This document shows, in pieces, positions 2,661 through 20,265 of a stretch of 64,000 bases of DNA (its first letter is position 1; each line of letters starts with the position of its first letter). The stretch comes from Escherichia phage JSE. The position numbers were made by a program, and so were the translations under genes. The notes below the pieces were generated by a model. It saw only the letters and a program-made list of their open reading frames with translations, was not told the origin of the DNA and searched no databases. The DNA lies in sequence record EU863408. One strand, 5' to 3'.

Positions 2661-2960
2661 TTAATCTTTTTTCAATGCATCCATTACTCGCTCTGCGATC
2701 AGTTCTCGTAAGCACTGATAACCATGATATTTGATGGCAATGTCACGCAGATCATTAACCAGTTCCCGTACTTCATGGTCTTTCAGATCGTCTCTGTATT
2801 TCGATTTAACCGTGTCTTTAGGTGGATTGTGGATAACCTGAAAACCTTGTTCTGCAATCACTGCGGCTTCGCGCTGGCGTTCATGCTGTACTGTATTTTT
2901 GATCAGGTCTGCTTCCATGAACTTTGCCATACTCATCATCATGTTATTCTTTTTGCTCAT
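2661..2960 (-). CDS. hypothetical protein
   Basis: track ORF 2661-2996; start moved to ATG at 2958-2960 (SD GAGGA) because promoter -10 lies at 2995-3000. Confidence 0.45.
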   Translation of the reverse strand: MSKKNNMMMSMAKFMEADLIKNTVQHERQREAAVIAEQGFQVIHNPPKDTVKSKYRDDLKDHEVRELVNDLRDIAIKYHGYQCLRELIAERVMDALKKD

Positions 2961-2994
2961 TATTAAATCCTCATAAAAGAAAAGGGAGACTCCC

Positions 2995-3022
2995 ATTATA
3001 GAGAATCTCCCTTGTATGTCAA
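2995..3022 (-). promoter_or_regulatory. sigma70-type early promoter
   Basis: minus strand TTGACA, 16-nt spacer, TATAAT, followed by GGGAGTCTCCC inverted repeat. Confidence 0.55.
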
Positions 3023-3582
3023 CTAAAATTTAAAGATGCAAACTCCCCGTGATGAATTTTTGCATATTCATCATATGCTCTAGCGGCTTCCTCCTGAGTA
3101 GCAAACGATCCTATGTATTTTCTGTATCCGTTTATCCTTATTTGTGCTTGCCACGGTCTTTTGCTCGATCCTTTGCGATGAGTAACACCATTATATATGC
3201 TCGTGCACCCGTCCATTTTCTTTTTATTGTACATGTTTTGTTGTTGTGTTGCCTCCCGTAAATTTGGTGGATTGTTGTTTTCTGGATTCCCGTCTATGTG
3301 GTCTATTACCTTAACCTGTGTTCCATATTCAAGAAACCAGACAATTCTATGTACAAGATATGTAGATGTTCTCTTTTTAACCTTATTGTAAACATCTATT
3401 GCCAAATGACCGTAATTTAACTTTTTTGTTTTTACTTTATCACCGACTTGGTAGAAATATCCCTCTGGTAGACCATTAAAAGACGGACTATTTGTTTTGT
3501 GATATAGAACACCTTCCGTGTGTCCAAATCTTCGTTTTAATTCCTCTTGAATTTCAGTATTCCAAAATTTCGCACTTTTCAT
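3019..3582 (-). CDS. free-standing HNH homing endonuclease with C-terminal AP2-type DNA-binding domain
   Basis: 187 aa; HNH core HIDGNPENNNPPNLREAT; AP2-like tail (YNGVT...WQAQI...GSFATQEEAARAYD); start 1 nt after gene 39 stop; paralog at 56960-57535. Confidence 0.8.
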   Translation of the reverse strand: MKSAKFWNTEIQEELKRRFGHTEGVLYHKTNSPSFNGLPEGYFYQVGDKVKTKKLNYGHLAIDVYNKVKKRTSTYLVHRIVWFLEYGTQVKVIDHIDGNPENNNPPNLREATQQQNMYNKKKMDGCTSIYNGVTHRKGSSKRPWQAQIRINGYRKYIGSFATQEEAARAYDEYAKIHHGEFASLNFS

Positions 3583-3583
3583 A

Positions 3584-5407
3584 TTATGACGCCATCCATG
3601 CCTTCCTCATGTCTGAATCTTCACTATAGAGCAAATCGAATAGCTCTTTATAGTTTTCCGGTAACGTGATGATCTCCATGACAGGATCGTTGATCACGCG
3701 ATGATAGTCTGATTCTGTGAGCGATGCTAAACCTTTGATATATCGAATGTTGTAACCTTTGATATTATCTCGGTCGTTCTCGAAATCTTCTAGGTCATAA
3801 TACCATCGAACATCATCACCTTTCTTTGGTTCAGCAATGATAATAGGTGTTTTGATAAACCGGATTCGTCCATCTTCGAACAATTCAGGCCAACGTGCAA
3901 AGAAAGAGATCAGACTAGGTTTAATAGACCCGATCCCGTCAGTATCAGCGTCGGTCATAATCGCAATATTTTTGTATTGCATAACTTCCAATGCATCAAC
4001 ACCAAATTGCAAGCCAGTGATCGCCATGATGTTAAAAATTTCGGCGTTCTTAACGATCTTTGCCTCCGGTTGTTCCCACGTTGTAAGAGTTTTGCCTCGC
4101 AACGGGAAACCTCCATGTAAATCTTGATCACGTACAGAGATCAGATAGTTGATCGCGGAATCACCTTCCGTCAAAAACAGGGTAGTTTCTGCGTCAGTTC
4201 CAATAAGGTTAGCTTTAACGTGTTTTGCTACCTTAGCCCGTTTTGCTGCCTTTGCTGCCTTAGTCGCTGCCGCTTTATCTGCTGCCTCTTTGCGTGCCAG
4301 GACTACAGCAATAATAGGCATGATAATGTTTTCTTTCTTCGCAATGACTTTAGCCAGCTTTTTAAAATCAAGATCAATATGACGCTTGATATCACCAGTT
4401 GGGTTAGTCAAGCGTTCTTTTGTCTGTGAATCAAAACGAAGGTTAGGCAATTCACGAACAATCAAAATACAGGTCAATCCAGACTTAACCGCAGCTTTAG
4501 TAACATCAACCTTATATTCTTTCTTGATTCGTTTTACAATCTCTTCACAAAGATCATCTGTCACGTAGTCTACGTGTGTTCCCCCGTTTTTGGTAAACAG
4601 ACCGTTAGCAAAGGATACTGATTTAAAACCTTCTCCCTCGACCGCCGGAACTAGGGCAAGTGAAAAGTTTTTATCTTCAATGACAAACGGATCATCATTG
4701 TATAGTTTAGCATAATCCTTGAACTTACTAACAATACGTTTACCATTAAACTTAAACGTGATCTTAGGAAATATTACGCTCAATGATTGCAGACGATCAT
4801 GAACAATATCTAAAACAGAGTTGTCCATCATATAACCTTCGAAGTGGTCGAAGTCTGGGCAAAATGTAACCTTTGTTCCCTTCAATTTTGATGGTTTCGA
4901 TGACCATGTGATATTTTCAGCACCGTTTGTACATTGAACGGTCATTTCTGTTTCGCCGTCACAGGTCACACCAGTAAACCAATCGCTAAAGAAATTTGAT
5001 AACGACGACCCAACACCGTTCATCCCTTGCGTTAATCGATTGGTATCATCAAAGTTAGACCCTGCTTTTGTTCGTGTCCATGCGGCTACAGGTTGCGGAA
5101 TCTGCGTACCCTCTGGGGTAGTAACCATATGTTGAGGAATACCGCGACCGTTGTCTGTTACCGTAACAATATTGTTTTGGATATCGACGCTAATCACATT
5201 GGCAAATTCAAAATTAGTGCGAATCGCCTCGTCTACAGAGTTGTCGATGATCTCATCAATGATTTTCACCAGTCCAGGAACATATGAAATTTTTGTCCAT
5301 TTACCGAACAGGAAACGTTGATGTTCTTCGTAAGTTGTTGATCCTATATACATTCCTGCACGCTTAAGGACATGCTCACGATCAGATAAAATGCGAAACT
5401 CACTCAT
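3584..5407 (-). CDS. 39: DNA topoisomerase II large subunit (GyrB-like), gene 39 fused with gene-60 region
   Basis: 607 aa; N-terminus MSEFRILSDREHVLKRAGMYIGS; GHKL ATPase and TOPRIM motifs; one continuous ORF through the region that T4 encodes as gene 60. Confidence 0.9.
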   Translation of the reverse strand: MSEFRILSDREHVLKRAGMYIGSTTYEEHQRFLFGKWTKISYVPGLVKIIDEIIDNSVDEAIRTNFEFANVISVDIQNNIVTVTDNGRGIPQHMVTTPEGTQIPQPVAAWTRTKAGSNFDDTNRLTQGMNGVGSSLSNFFSDWFTGVTCDGETEMTVQCTNGAENITWSSKPSKLKGTKVTFCPDFDHFEGYMMDNSVLDIVHDRLQSLSVIFPKITFKFNGKRIVSKFKDYAKLYNDDPFVIEDKNFSLALVPAVEGEGFKSVSFANGLFTKNGGTHVDYVTDDLCEEIVKRIKKEYKVDVTKAAVKSGLTCILIVRELPNLRFDSQTKERLTNPTGDIKRHIDLDFKKLAKVIAKKENIIMPIIAVVLARKEAADKAAATKAAKAAKRAKVAKHVKANLIGTDAETTLFLTEGDSAINYLISVRDQDLHGGFPLRGKTLTTWEQPEAKIVKNAEIFNIMAITGLQFGVDALEVMQYKNIAIMTDADTDGIGSIKPSLISFFARWPELFEDGRIRFIKTPIIIAEPKKGDDVRWYYDLEDFENDRDNIKGYNIRYIKGLASLTESDYHRVINDPVMEIITLPENYKELFDLLYSEDSDMRKAWMAS

Positions 5408-17061: not shown

Positions 17062-18538
17062 TTAAATGTCAAACAGGTCCGTCAGTGAAGCAACTTTTTC
17101 ATATTGCAGCTTCGCAGCCGTGGTAATGTTCTCCAGTGGTTTGACGAAAGTCTTATTAAACAACAAAGGCCAGTCCAACCACTTCAACACCTCTGATTCA
17201 ATTTCTGGCGGAATACGAGTACCAGACAACCAACCAAAACAGATTTCTCCAAACGGATTTCGGTCTTTAAGCGGTACAATCATAACCTTCTCGCCTTCAC
17301 GAATCGGATCTAGTCCGAATTTTCGAGCATTACGATTATAACACAATACACTCTTAACCGCATACGGACAACCCTTAATCGGATACCCGTTTGAATCGCT
17401 GTATTTCTGTAGGTTGTTTGCAGATGATACCGCAGCAACATCAAGATAGTCAAGTTTTCTAAATTCTTGCTCAAAAATACCGTAGTATTCCTGCAATGAC
17501 TCTTCACCTTCCTGCAACATACGGCGAATACATTCTTTCAGTGATTTCTGGCATGCTTTAGGGGTGGAGCTACGTTGCGTTTCCAAGCCCATGATTTTTA
17601 GCTTAGGTTCAGCAAAGCGCGTTCCTTCCATATCCCAAACATTAAGAGCATAACGCTTTTTACCAGTCCAGAATCCACCGATACCCGCAGATTTCAACGG
17701 AGGACCAGCAATTGCCTCACGGTCCATAAACATCAAGTGCTCATAGTTGTTCATGTACTCGCATAACTCGCGATATCCCTTGTCGATAATAGGTTCCATT
17801 CGATGTTTACCGAAATTATCAAGGAAGTCAACAAGTTTTTCGGTATCGTCGAAACGGTCTTCCCCGCCAACCTTATCAATAACATTGTTAACCAGCACAT
17901 AAACGGAGTCAGTATCACAATAACGAACATATGCAAAATCAGTCGTTCCGCAAAGCTCGTTTAAGTATTCGTTAATCTTACGCTCAATCCACTGAATTGC
18001 AAGCTGACCGAACAGTGTGATCGCACTAGCGTTACGGAGATCATAAAAACGGAATTTAGGATTCCCCAACGCACCATAAAGGGAGTTGATCAAAACTTTA
18101 CGAGAAAGCTGGTTTGTATTGCACAAGATCGACTCGTCTTTACATTCTTCCAGTAATTTCTCTAATGCATCTTTACTCAATTCAGAAAGCATCGATTTAA
18201 ACGCTTCATCGAAGTCGTGACGCACTTCAACGCTATAGCTAATGGTTCCCCCATAAACATGATTTTCATCGTGTAGAATCGCTTTACAGAGTTCAGCATT
18301 GCGGTCACATGCCAACATCATGTTTTTGTACTGCTTACGCTGATCGAATACCTTTTTAATCTCAATCGGTACGATACCGTGAATATCTTTTCTATACATC
18401 CATCCGTTAGGCGAGCAAGAATACTCATCACTCGGACGTGGTGCAGTTTTATTGATATACTCGTGCATCGGTGCAGCATCAAAAGATCCGGCGATTGTTT
18501 CCGGCGAAATATTAACCTGACGGATGATTGATGGATAC
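17062..18538 (-). CDS. 43: DNA polymerase gp43, exon 2 (motifs A-distal, B, C; thumb)
   Basis: track ORF 17062-18468 extended in frame upstream to 18538, adding YPSIIRQVNISPETIAGSFDAAP; contains KVLINSLYGALG and YCDTDS. Confidence 0.85.
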
Positions 18539-19002
18539 CATTATGTTCAGCGTGGTTCGCTACTCCCGCGCCCGTTCTCTTGCGAACTGCTACATGTCAC
18601 CATGTAGATCAGACTATATCACATTCTCATAGAGAATCCTGCCATTTCGAATCGCTTGATTCTACTCTACTCGGTTCGTTACCCTTTCGATAGTCGTTGA
18701 ACAACTGCATCTTTAAGCTCATTTTGATCAAACGGTGTTCTCTTACAGTATCCGCTATAATTCTTCACCCTGATACGGATTAGACACCAGTTTAATGTAG
18801 TCGTTTAATGCTTCCTCGTTATGTATTTCGTACTTTCTTAAAATGTCTTTCATCTCGCGCCTCCAATGTATATCAATATCTATATACATTATAAGACACG
18901 TTAGCTCAAAATGCAACTGCTGCTGATTGTCTCCTTAGAGATTTCCCAGCAATTAAGCAGGTTATTCGATCACTGTCACCAGTGAAAGCCCCATATCAGT
19001 TT
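18539..19002 (-). mobile_element. group I intron in gene 43 (464 nt, no endonuclease ORF)
   Basis: exon 1 ends ...TSL (CCCU|) then in-frame stop; intron AAACUGAUAUGGGG...GAACAUAAUG|; contains UUCAACGACUA and GAUAUAGUCU cores; splicing restores DLTSLYPSII. Confidence 0.8.
18755..18853 (-). CDS. small intron-internal ORF (32 aa)
   Basis: hand-translated MKDILRKYEIHNEEALNDYIKLVSNPYQGEEL; SD GGAGG; no endonuclease motif. Confidence 0.25.
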   Translation of the reverse strand: MKDILRKYEIHNEEALNDYIKLVSNPYQGEEL

Positions 19003-20204
19003 AGGGAAGTAAGGTCAAAGCTCATCATCCAACGGTAAGCATTCGGCACAGGTTCTTTTACGAATGCGCCCGGATAAGTCTGCTTAGGCTGTATCTTGTT
19101 CTCTGGTACTACTTTACCCTCAGCTTTCAGAGATCCGAAGATAATAGCATCCCATACTTTCATCGGGTTATAAACATGGTTAAATTTAATCTTTGCATAG
19201 AAACATAGGCTATACACCAGATCGATAAATCCGCGCTTTTTATCAATCGCCAACACACGGTCAACGTCGCCGATGTTATAATCGATGTAAAGTTGATGGT
19301 TGTCATCACGCAATTTCTTTAACGGACCATCATAATCAACCTTACCGATTCCTGTCTCATATTCAGCAACATAATCTAACGCATATGTTGGTTGAGTCGT
19401 AAAGCTAAATTTCTTGTACAGGTCAATATAATCAAGGCTTTCGATCCCCATGATCGTAAATGCTTCACGCTCGTTGCCAAAATCATCCTGTGAGATTCGG
19501 GATTTAATCTTACCGCACGGGCTTAGACGGTTAGCGGTTCTACTTCCGAACTTATTACTGATACGTTTAATGATATATGGAATATCGAATGTTTCTGTGT
19601 TCCAGCCAGTGAAACCAACGGGTCGGTTTTCCTCAAAGAATCGGATGTATTCTAACAGCAATTCATCTTCTGTGTCATAGACGTTATAAACAACGCGCTC
19701 TACAATATCAGGTCGAAGAATAGACTTGCTAGATTCCCAGATTTCACCGTTTTTTCCTTTCAAATCAAATACAAAGAAACGATCATGTACGGAATCATAA
19801 TGCGTAATTGCATCGATAGGATATTTCGCTTCTTCTGGTTTAGGAAATTCTGGGGCAGTGACCTCGATATCAACCCATGCTACACGGATTTTATTTCGGT
19901 CATATCGAATCTCGCCTTTATACGTATCAGACAGATAGGAGATGATAAAGTCATCCATCCCTAGCGCCTCCTGCCCCATTTCTCCCATCTTTTTACGCCA
20001 TTTGTTGGCCTCGTTCATAGATGGGAATTTTTTAGCAATGCAAGGCTTGCCATAGATATCTTTATAATTCGTAACCATACCAGGCGCGGCATGATGAAAT
20101 AAAGTTGGCGTATATTCAACGTAACGCTCTTGTTCTTGTCCAGCATCATCAATATAACGCTCGTAGATCTTATCACCCACTCGCTCACATGACAGAAAAT
20201 ACAT
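19003..20204 (-). CDS. 43: DNA polymerase gp43, exon 1 (N-terminal and 3'-5' exonuclease domains)
   Basis: track ORF 18996-20234; start at ATG 20202-20204 (SD AAGGAG; MYFLSCERVGDKIYERYID matches T4 gp43 N-terminus); Exo motifs; ends at SFDLTSL. Confidence 0.85.
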
Positions 20205-20236
20205 AATATAAACTCCTTCACTTACGAAAGACACTC

Positions 20237-20265
20237 ATTATAGGGGAATCGACTTAGTTTGTCAA
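20237..20265 (-). promoter_or_regulatory. sigma70-type promoter upstream of gene 43
   Basis: minus strand TTGACA, 17-nt spacer, TATAAT. Confidence 0.55.

Follow-up and report, generated by a model that had tools for sequence, protein, structure and literature searches.

How can a T4-type phage make its replicative DNA polymerase from a gene that is broken within the catalytic motif A of the enzyme? This question is raised by gene 43 of Escherichia phage JSE, an RB49-like member of the genus Krischvirus in which this gene encodes the PolB-type replicase. In the window, i.e. the whole stretch of 64,000 nucleotides analysed here, gene 43 appears as two open reading frames (ORFs), whose unjoined products are exactly the JSE proteins ACL77977.1 and ACL77976.1 (exact protein look-up). 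The features of the locus indicate with high confidence that the gene is interrupted at motif A by a subgroup-IA group I intron that harbours the remnant of an endonuclease gene and that is predicted to splice. The gene would be organized as follows:

19003..20204, minus strand: exon 1, starting with the ATG at 20204 and encoding gp43 residues 1 to ~401 (ORF list and sequence)
18539..19002, minus strand: putative group I intron, subgroup IA type with P7.1/P7.2 (Rfam RF00028, covariation, fold z-score)
17062..18538, minus strand: exon 2, opening with the G of a Leu codon followed by YPSIIRQVN... and ending with the stop codon 17062-17064

The first ORF spans 18996..20234 (minus strand) and terminates in ...SFDLTSLN*. 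The gene start is the ATG at 20204, which matches the annotated RB49 start MYFLSC, and not the GTG at 20234. Exon 1 ends with the codons of ...SFDLTS and the CU of a Leu codon; the stop of the ORF is a UGA (18998-18996) formed by nucleotides 5-7 of the insert, within the P1 loop. The second ORF (17062..18468, minus strand) has the ATG of MHEYI (Met 18468) as its first start codon, no ATG, GTG or TTG being present upstream of this Met in the exon-2 frame. The preliminary description of this DNA had remarked on both the N-terminal ORF ending just after SFDLTSL and the C-terminal ORF devoid of a start upstream of MHEYI, and the sequence agrees on both points. The exon-2 frame upstream of MHEYI encodes YPSIIRQVNISPETIAGSFDAAP; these first 23 codons are open, in frame and protein-identical to RB49, with almost only synonymous differences from relatives.

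Joining CCCU|GUAUCC (19003 to 18538), as had been proposed, keeps the frame, restores DLTSLYPSII and leads to an 892-aa product that is identical to the intronless RB49 gp43 at 890 of 892 positions with zero gaps. The intron would thus lie between the second and third bases of the Leu codon of motif A (DLTSL|YPSII), the joined mRNA would read ...ACUUCCCU|GUAUCCAUC... across the junction and the corresponding peptide would be ...FDLTSLYPSIIR....

A truly split gene would provide another explanation of the two ORFs. A 402-aa 43A protein (...SLN) and a 468-aa 43B protein (MHEYI...) would then assemble from unspliced RNA, like gp43A and gp43B of Aeromonas phages 44RR/25, whose split enzymes are functional (PMC2988022). 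Indeed, both ORFs exist. In GenBank, JSE and each of the 12 intron-bearing relatives have a separate CDS for either ORF, called 'DNA polymerase', or, in one record, a pseudogene-like misc_feature, and none has an annotated intron. However, the break sits in catalytic motif A, and a 43B protein starting at MHEYI would lose YPSIIRQVNISPETIAGSFDAAP, 23 conserved residues including the YPSII of motif A. A separately translated 43B that includes motif A is rejected, as Met 18468 is not preceded by any start codon in its frame. Furthermore, a complete and covarying group I core is found in the spacer, and its guide matches the ends of both exons. A split gene is therefore very improbable, and an intein is ruled out by stop codons in all frames of the insert as well as by the group I core.

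The intron reading rests on several lines of evidence. The insert is 464 nt long, its 5' end is AAACUG and its last base, at 18539, is a G (omega-G); as checked on the minus strand, length, limits (18539-19002) and both ends had been correctly given in the preliminary description. The covariance-model search suggested there matches the full RF00028 model (Intron_gpI, 1-253) with E=1.9e-9 and 42.9 bits, short of the gathering score (50). When the whole window was scanned with Rfam at the gathering threshold, no match was reported, an effect of the large inserts in P6 and P7.1, which depress the score of the JSE intron; the homologue found at the same site in phage PC3 reaches 58.6 bits, above the gathering score. 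The fold z-score of the intron is -3.2. The omega-G, a U·G-containing P1 and a possible 5-bp P10 are all read from the intron sequence. The fold into P1-P9 that had also been suggested yields a group I core, including the P3/P7 pseudoknot, with the following elements:

18989..19006, minus strand: P1, in which exon CCCU (19006-19003) and intron AAA pair with the guide UAUGGGG (18995-18989) (sequence, Rfam alignment)
18993..18997, minus strand: putative P10 guide GAUAU, complementary to GUAUC (18538-18534) of exon 2 (from sequence)
18971..18984, minus strand: P2 hairpin CACUG-GUGA-CAGUG, 3/5 pairs compensatory with respect to the Ackermannviridae homologue
18957..18961, minus strand: P3 5' strand CCUGC, pairing with GCAGG 18642-18638, 3/5 pairs compensatory
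within 18921..18951, minus strand: P4, UGCUG 18951-18947 with CAGCA 18925-18921, invariant and always paired
within 18921..18951, minus strand: P5, UCUC 18941-18938 with GAGA 18933-18930, invariant and always paired
18701..18920, minus strand: extended P6/P6a stem, 18920-18903 with 18719-18701, enclosing the endonuclease-gene relic (constrained fold)
18691..18695, minus strand: P7 5' strand GACUA, inside the R element GUUCAACGACUA, its 5 pairs invariant and always paired
18690-18676, minus strand: P7.1, tentative (energy model only)
18649..18662, minus strand: P7.2 hairpin GAAUC-AAGC-GAUUC, 2 compensatory pairs and 1 single-sided change
18623..18637, minus strand: P8 hairpin AUUCUC-UAU-GAGAAU, 1 compensatory pair
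18590..18607, minus strand: P9 hairpin CUACAUG-GUGA-CAUGUAG, 2 compensatory pairs (Rfam alignment, fold)
18587 to 18549, minus strand: extension 3' of P9, further tentative stems (energy model only)

At the 5' splice site, CCCU (19006-19003) pairs with GGGG (18992-18989), the last exon pair being the U19003·G wobble. The strands of P4 and P5 correspond to the classical P and Q elements. The R/S-type cores noticed earlier, UUCAACGACUA and GAUAUAGUCU, are present and aligned to the invariant Intron_gpI core: the former corresponds to J6/7 and the P7 5' strand (~18701-18691), the latter to the P7 3' strand (~18620-18611). P7 forms by pairing of GACUA with UAGUC (18616-18612) inside the S element GAUAUAGUCU, generating the P3/P7 pseudoknot. 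The P7 5' strand and the P3 3' strand are separated by 43 nt, with the extra helices P7.1/P7.2 that define subgroup IA.

The covariation test included P2, P3, P4, P5, P7, P7.2, P8 and P9, i.e. 45 pairs, with the crossing P3 and P7 counted in separate brackets. All cells are paired (270/270) and 11 pairs are changed on both sides with respect to the Ackermannviridae homologue (three in P2, three in P3, two in P7.2, one in P8 and two in P9), versus 0-1 compensatory pairs in slid controls. As the sample consists of two diverged clades, each nearly uniform internally, this covariation amounts to one evolutionary comparison. P1 and P10 were judged from sequence and left out of the count because MAFFT misaligned P1, whose loops have 10 vs 15 nt, between the clades; P10 is weaker in the Ackermannviridae homologue than in JSE. 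P6 stands outside the test, as its sequences cannot be aligned between the two clades; like P7.1 and the region 3' of P9, it was modelled by energy alone. The earlier proposal of a group I intron splitting gp43 in motif A is thus supported by the RF00028 match, P1, P10 and the terminal G, the 11 compensatory pairs and the restoration of the RB49 protein.

The intron is the deleted version of a longer element. Twelve Krischvirus phage records hold a 1114-nt version, the carriers named being ECD7, JK32, MIZ4/5, kvi, G2494, G5211, PTE-Eco09, Cognac, ELT4 and JEP8. These introns are 99.1-99.6% identical to that of JSE over all its 464 nt and have the same insertion site and flanking exon bases, but carry 650 more nt, giving in the P6 loop an ORF for a 274-aa HNH-type endonuclease. 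The last codons of this ORF (VQRLSKG) overlap the J6/7-P7 core, and in PTE-Eco09 it carries a nonsense mutation. Two features of the JSE intron correspond to what is left of this gene:

18755-18853, minus strand: 32-aa ORF MKDILRKYEIHNEEALNDYIKLVSNPYQGEEL*, N-terminal relic of an HNH homing endonuclease and sole ATG ORF in the intron
18760..18765, minus strand: deletion junction, one surviving AAGAAT (BLAST segments 1-243 and 238-464 vs ECD7 1-243 and 888-1114)

The 32-aa ORF is preceded by a Shine-Dalgarno sequence (GGAGG, 18864-18860) and matches PHROG 12434 'HNH endonuclease' (positions 4-36, E=9.8e-6). The relic DNA upstream of the junction (~first 29-30 codons) is identical to the endonuclease gene of ECD7/JK32. 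In the relatives, two AAGAAT copies flank the 650 nt of endonuclease coding sequence lost in JSE. The HHICP...N...H region of the ECD7 endonuclease falls inside this deletion, and therefore JSE has no intact HNH motif. The class assignment of the endonuclease is based on matches to PHROG 12434 and 655 and on the HH...N...H motif recognized by eye; Pfam, NCBIfam and PDB sequence searches with the intact endonuclease of the relatives gave no match. The preliminary description was right in finding a lone ORF of 32 aa, but this ORF is a relic with a known parent: as a 1114-nt parent intron with a 274-aa endonuclease exists in 12 relatives, 'ORF-less' has to be replaced by '650-nt-deleted homing-endonuclease gene', in line with the PHROG 12434 match. 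Outside the deletion, JSE differs from the aligned ECD7 and JK32 copies at 3 positions, 0 of them in core helices. An A-to-G change in TATAAATA was considered as post-deletion decay, a view weakened by ELT4, which shares the change and has an intact endonuclease gene.

The 464-nt form was found in JSE only: the 12 phage records and 8 metagenome places all have the full endonuclease gene instead, and IMG/VR does not contain the junction 23-mer. Such a unique form might suggest an artefact of sequencing or assembly, or else a defective genome in which the gene is an inactivated pseudogene. However, 12 independent isolates and a number of metagenome contigs share the insertion site and the two ends of the intron at 99% identity, the ends of the deletion are clean, show microhomology and lie in a dispensable loop, and the exons are intact, making an artefact or a pseudogene extremely improbable.

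The proposed history and splicing of the intron are as follows. The intron would once have been mobile, and JSE has lost 650 nt of the endonuclease gene by deletion between the AAGAAT repeats. As the deletion is confined to the P6 loop and leaves the core helices untouched, the JSE intron is predicted to be splicing-competent and non-autonomous. The gene 43 pre-mRNA would fold into P1-P9, and the guide 5'-GAUAU-GGGG-3' would pair with the exon-1 end CCCU, with the U·G wobble at the cleavage site. Exogenous guanosine would then attack the 5' splice site; after this first step, the guide may pair with the exon-2 start GUAUC (P10), and the freed 3'-OH of exon 1 would attack after the terminal G (18539). 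The ligated mRNA would encode the intact 892-aa polymerase, while ribosomes would halt on the unspliced RNA at the UGA that begins at the fifth intron base.

Since the first 23 codons of exon 2 have no start of their own, a complete motif A is expected from spliced RNA only. As JSE is viable and has been propagated, a working polymerase must be made, and it is reasonable to consider that replication depends on splicing. No published demonstration of splicing was found in the literature for the JSE gene 43 intron; we infer from the sequence that it self-splices, and likewise the activity and target of the endonuclease.

Efficient splicing in vivo requires translation or protein chaperones in the case of several phage and organellar group I introns. 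By this general precedent, the JSE intron might require a protein cofactor or the translation of exon 1, or might splice inefficiently after the change in P6, so that self-splicing would fail in vitro. The deletion did change the P6 peripheral domain, and the Rfam score is under the gathering score. On the other hand, the core helices are intact, as is the P6 stem itself, with no difference from the endonuclease-bearing copies. Furthermore, self-splicing in vitro occurs in related T4 introns with this core type, and the JSE core is 80% identical to that of T4 nrdB. Such a dependence or inefficiency is accordingly unlikely, self-splicing being preferred.

The alleles without intron provide information on the past of the site. 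In about 50 relatives, gene 43 is continuous and intronless, and the insertion site of intronless alleles reads ...GACTTAACAAGTCTGTAYCCATCTATTATTCGA.... The 5' flank is TCC CT, which is needed for P1, in 9/9 intron-bearing alleles and AGT CT in intronless alleles. Relative to most intronless Krischvirus alleles, the intron-bearing ones show 6 synonymous changes over the 9 nt upstream and 4 over the 18 nt downstream, and have TCC CT and ATC ATC in common with the exons of Ackermannviridae. The flanks of RB49 are mixed, intronless-type on the 5' side and intron-type on the 3' side, possibly as the footprint of a precise intron loss. It is conceivable, at somewhat under an even chance, that the intron and its endonuclease moved as a unit between Straboviridae (Krischvirus) and Ackermannviridae, into the same nucleotide of PolB motif A and with a short tract of donor exon. 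If so, Krischvirus would display all the stages of a homing endonuclease, i.e. intact, nonsense (PTE-Eco09), 650-nt deletion (JSE) and possible precise loss (RB49), and the JSE intron would be a non-autonomous passenger, mobilizable in trans by related phages during co-infection.

More generally, this locus is a further case of essential phage genes targeted by mobile introns in their most conserved catalytic motifs, and of endonuclease genes that decay once fixed, with a useful natural intact/nonsense/deleted/absent series in one genus. For annotation, JSE and the 12 related GenBank genomes should carry a joined gene 43 CDS and an intron feature. The JSE intron opens no new question.

This intron has been known since 2010 and is of a well-known kind. 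Whether the insertion was already described had been asked in the preliminary description; it was, since Petrov et al. 2010 (Virol J 7:292, PMC2993671) mention, for gene 43 of JSE, a putative group I intron whose endonuclease gene is truncated. In the available passages of that paper, it is the subject of one sentence and a 'relic?' table entry; splicing data do not appear in these passages, nor do the insertion site, structure and parent intron, which were worked out here.

Another close system is the PolB motif-A intron of Ackermannviridae (Dickeya phage RC-2014, Salmonella phage SeF6a, E. coli phage PC3), which has an identical insertion point (DLNSL|YPHII, after the CU of Leu) and a homologous core with compensatory changes, but only ~76% identity to JSE over the conserved parts. 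Its endonuclease is homologous to that of Krischvirus and shares with it the C-terminus VQRLSK, which overlaps P7; an independent loss of the endonuclease gene in PC3 led to a 465-nt intron. However, these phages belong to a different virus family, and their introns have larger P7.1 and P8 and a longer P1 loop. Two putative introns were also reported within LIMEstone1's DNA polymerase gene (PMC3296691).

The intron of T4 nrdB, to which that of JSE is likened in PMC2993671, has the same core type and is 80% identical to it over 95 nt of the P7.2-P9 region. It belongs to the T-even subgroup IA2 introns (td, nrdB, nrdD), and its HNH endonuclease gene (defunct I-TevIII) was also truncated by deletion. 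Both introns lie in essential genes of nucleotide or DNA metabolism, but the host gene and insertion site differ. Splicing of the T4 intron is experimentally proven.

The intron 25.g43B of Aeromonas phage 25 was reportedly the subject of work by Petrov, Ratnayaka and Karam in 2010 (J Mol Biol 395:457). According to PMC2993671, this group I intron interrupts gene 43 of a T4-related phage and does not itself carry an endonuclease gene. Its core is related to that of JSE (74% over 114 nt, Aes120 copy). Identity of the JSE site with the known g43B site is rejected: g43B, like the intron of Providencia phage PSTCR6, lies in motif B (KILINSLYGA|...GNNFFRFYD for 25.g43B), and that of JSE in motif A. 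In phage 25, moreover, the gene is divided between two cistrons, 43A and 43B, and a GIY-YIG endonuclease gene is present as a free-standing gene.

Gene 43 is encoded on the minus strand of the window as two open reading frames:

18996–20234, minus strand: upstream ORF, ending in ...SFDLTSLN-stop
17062–18468, minus strand: downstream ORF, whose earliest possible start is the Met of MHEYI

Upstream of this Met, the same frame encodes YPSIIRQVNISPETIAGSFDAAP and contains no ATG, GTG or TTG. The interval between T19003 and G18538 comprises 464 nt, starts with AAACUG and ends with G. Joining 19003 to 18538 preserves the frame and, with translation beginning at ATG 20204 as annotated in the intronless phage RB49, gives an 892-aa protein that is identical to RB49 gp43 at 890 of 892 positions, without gaps, and that reads DLTSLYPSII across the junction. 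The split ORFs, the 464-nt insert and the junction of CCCU with GUAUCC put forward in the preliminary description are therefore exact. The two exon products match exactly ACL77977.1/YP_002922100.1 and ACL77976.1/YP_002922099.1, both named 'DNA polymerase [Escherichia phage JSE]'. A two-subunit polymerase made without splicing would agree with this GenBank annotation, but it would cut motif A and drop 23 residues that are open, in frame, conserved and devoid of a start codon, which makes it very improbable. An intein is ruled out by stop codons in all frames, and an artefact by the same site and ends in 12 isolates and several metagenome contigs.

The interruption of motif A by a group I intron, as initially proposed, is borne out by a covariance-model match, by covariation and by exon restoration. 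Indeed, a sensitive Rfam scan of 18300–19200 gave a single match, to RF00028 (group I catalytic intron), at 18590–19012 on the minus strand; it covers the whole model (1–253) with 42.9 bits (E=1.9e-9), short of the curated gathering score (50) because P6 holds 216 nt and another 44 nt separate P7 from P3'. At the gathering threshold, the whole 64-kb window yields no match, and therefore routine annotation misses the intron. The core helices of a group I fold could be placed from P2 to P9 as follows:

18984–18980 / 18975–18971, minus strand: P2
18961–18957 / 18642–18638, minus strand: P3
18951–18947 / 18925–18921, minus strand: P4
18941–18938 / 18933–18930, minus strand: P5
18920–18903 / 18719–18701, minus strand: P6/P6a (long), predicted fold
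18695–18691 / 18616–18612, minus strand: P7
18662–18658 / 18653–18649, minus strand: P7.2
18637–18632 / 18628–18623, minus strand: P8
18607–18601 / 18596–18590, minus strand: P9

P1 was read from the sequence: exon CCCU (19006–19003) pairs with GGGG (18992–18989), so that the last exon base forms the canonical U·G wobble. Exon 2 opens with GUAUC, five bases complementary to GAUAU (18997–18993), the 5' continuation of the guide, and this pairing is a predicted P10; the terminal base of the intron is G18539. On its own, the intron gives a better fold than any of 100 shuffled versions (z = -3.2). As P7.2 and a tentative P7.1 are present, it belongs to subgroup IA, of the phage type; over 95 nt of P7.2–P9 it shares 80% identity with the T4 nrdB intron, and about 590 phage records give weaker matches, the td, nrdD, T7-like DNA polymerase I and phiKZ elements among them. 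Splicing may be autonomous in vitro or may be helped by translation or proteins; a literature search found no published splicing assay for the JSE or Krischvirus intron.

A homologous intron occupies the identical nucleotide position in the PolB gene of Ackermannviridae (DLNSL/YPHII, after the CU of the Leu codon; here and below, a slash in a motif or codon marks the insertion site), namely in Dickeya phage RC-2014, Salmonella phage SeF6a and E. coli phage PC3, the PC3 copy scoring above the Rfam gathering score (58.6 bits). In an alignment of three Krischvirus and three Ackermannviridae copies, with P3/P7 treated as a pseudoknot, 45 pairs show standard pairing in 270 of 270 cells. Both-sided changes affect 11 pairs (three in P2, three in P3, two in P7.2, one in P8 and two in P9), against 0–1 pairs and 34–44% pairing when partners were slid by 1–3 columns, although two clades are in effect contrasted, which amounts to one deep comparison and not to many independent events.

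The comparison with T4-related genomes disclosed a longer form of the intron. Among 65 Krischvirus-type matches (Megablast, 50,697 phage records), about 50, such as RB49 and GEC-3S, have an unbroken gene 43 and no intron, and 12 records carry the same insert at 99.1–99.6% identity and a length of 1114 nt. Their 650 extra nt complete a 274-aa ORF annotated variously as 'HNH endonuclease', 'NUMOD3 motif family protein' or 'hypothetical protein'. The preliminary description had called the JSE intron ORF-less; its single 32-aa ORF is real, but it is the stump of this endonuclease gene:

18755–18853, minus strand: 32-aa ORF, 5' part of the endonuclease gene, DNA identical to ECD7/JK32 until the deletion junction

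It also matches PHROG 12434 ('HNH endonuclease') at positions 4–36 (E=9.8e-6). The deletion ends are two AAGAAT copies in the relatives, a single copy being left at 18760–18765; 650 nt are not a whole number of codons, hence a frameshift that stops the 32-aa ORF after GEEL. The deletion lies wholly within the P6 loop, and the three other differences from ECD7/JK32 affect no core helix. The JSE intron is thus a deletion derivative of a mobile intron. The junction 23-mer of the 464-nt form is absent from IMG/VR, and none of the eight metagenome places encoding the identical exon-2 protein has this form, all eight having the 274-aa gene.

The Krischvirus endonuclease is not recognized in Pfam, NCBIfam or PDB sequence searches. 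It is homologous over its full length to a 292-aa Ackermannviridae endonuclease, with which it shares EYSExHHIxP...WNxVxL...DHVEAHRLL and NPAKRxxVRLKIS, and the final codons of both genes (VQRLSK) form the J6/7-P7 core sequence GUUCAACGACUAUCGAAAG. In Escherichia phage vB_EcoM_PTE-Eco09 (L013 398–1222; L numbers designate loci with local coordinates), a TGC codon of the gene has become the nonsense codon TGA (locus position 607), a second, independent decay route in the same genus; a base 3 nt ahead of the 3' splice site is lacking as well (~1359; ACATAATG to ACATATG). PC3 carries a 465-nt motif-A intron (L004 2486–2950) that lost its endonuclease gene independently of, and in parallel with, JSE, through two separate deletions, of ~648 nt and of ~57 nt relative to RC-2014/SeF6a, whose junctions show short overlaps. 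None of the 12 GenBank records with the 1114-nt form annotates an intron or joined CDS; 11 of the 12 intron-bearing records give two 'DNA polymerase' CDS, and in G2494 (L012) the whole of gene 43 is a misc_feature, 'similar to putative DNA polymerase'.

In the exon flanks, the nine intron-bearing alleles that were examined share GAC CTT ACT TCC CT/G TAT CCA TCA ATC ATC CGT, and six of seven intronless ones have GAC TTA ACA AGT CT/G TAY CCA TCT ATT ATT CGA; the changes are synonymous only and clustered from -11 to +18. TCC CT provides the CCCU that pairs with the guide, and Ackermannviridae exons likewise have TCC CT and ATC ATC. This pattern would fit co-conversion of donor exons during homing together with the P1 requirement. 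RB49 (L003 ~1740–1770) is chimeric, with an intronless-type 5' flank (TTA ACA AGT CT) and an intron-type 3' flank (TCA ATC ATC CGT), where the other six intronless phages have TCT ATT ATT CGA; this may be a trace left by loss of the intron or by recombination there.

A long predicted hairpin lies just 5' of the endonuclease start (18856–18900, minus strand; L001 1851–1900), with arms CGUGUCUU/UAAUGUAUAU and AUAUACAUUG/GAGGCGCG and the Shine-Dalgarno GGAGG buried in the predicted pairing. In 12 of 13 scanned copies that bear the endonuclease gene, its loop matches the T4-type late-promoter motif exactly (TATAAATA); TATAGATA replaces it in the window (18884–18877) and in phage ELT4. T4 intron endonucleases are expressed from late transcripts only, an arrangement that the hairpin and promoter motif appear to resemble.

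Other elements were encountered in these searches. In Acinetobacter phage YMC13/03/R2096 (L005), two adjacent strong group I matches (2342–2611 and 2727–2949; 78.8 and 96.6 bits) fall where nothing is annotated, between an HNH endonuclease gene and the CDS of the terminase large subunit, and the terminase gene may be interrupted and mis-annotated. The metagenomic Krischvirus contig SRR12268560_9660 (L025 5291–6040) has an extra 249-aa gene between uvsX and the next head-chaperone-like gene, found neither in the window nor in the other contigs; its weak match to the I-TevI DNA-binding domain suggests that it is probably a free-standing homing endonuclease.

The JSE gene 43 intron is a textbook kind of element and has already been reported: Petrov et al. 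2010 mention a putative group I intron with a truncated endonuclease gene (PMC2993671). The additions of modest interest are the 1114-nt parent intron of 12 genomes, the deletion at a microhomology, the homologue that sits at the same site in a second virus family and lost its endonuclease gene independently, and the flank haplotypes. In RC-2014 (L007 2616–3971), a segment holding an annotated opposite-strand ORF (3049–3924) splits PolB again, downstream of the motif-A intron, in agreement with the two putative introns with endonuclease genes reported in the gene for the DNA polymerase of LIMEstone1, another member of the Ackermannviridae (PMC3296691). Providencia phage PSTCR6 (L009 ~800–2760) and Aeromonas phage Aes120 (L006 ~2750–3010), both T4-related, have a group I intron at gp43 motif B (KILINSLYGA/...), so that intron insertion in gene 43 has at least two separate hot spots, one at motif A and one at motif B. 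Whereas the JSE intron interrupts motif A, the other published gene 43 intron, that of Aeromonas phage 25, is inserted within the 43B cistron at motif B.
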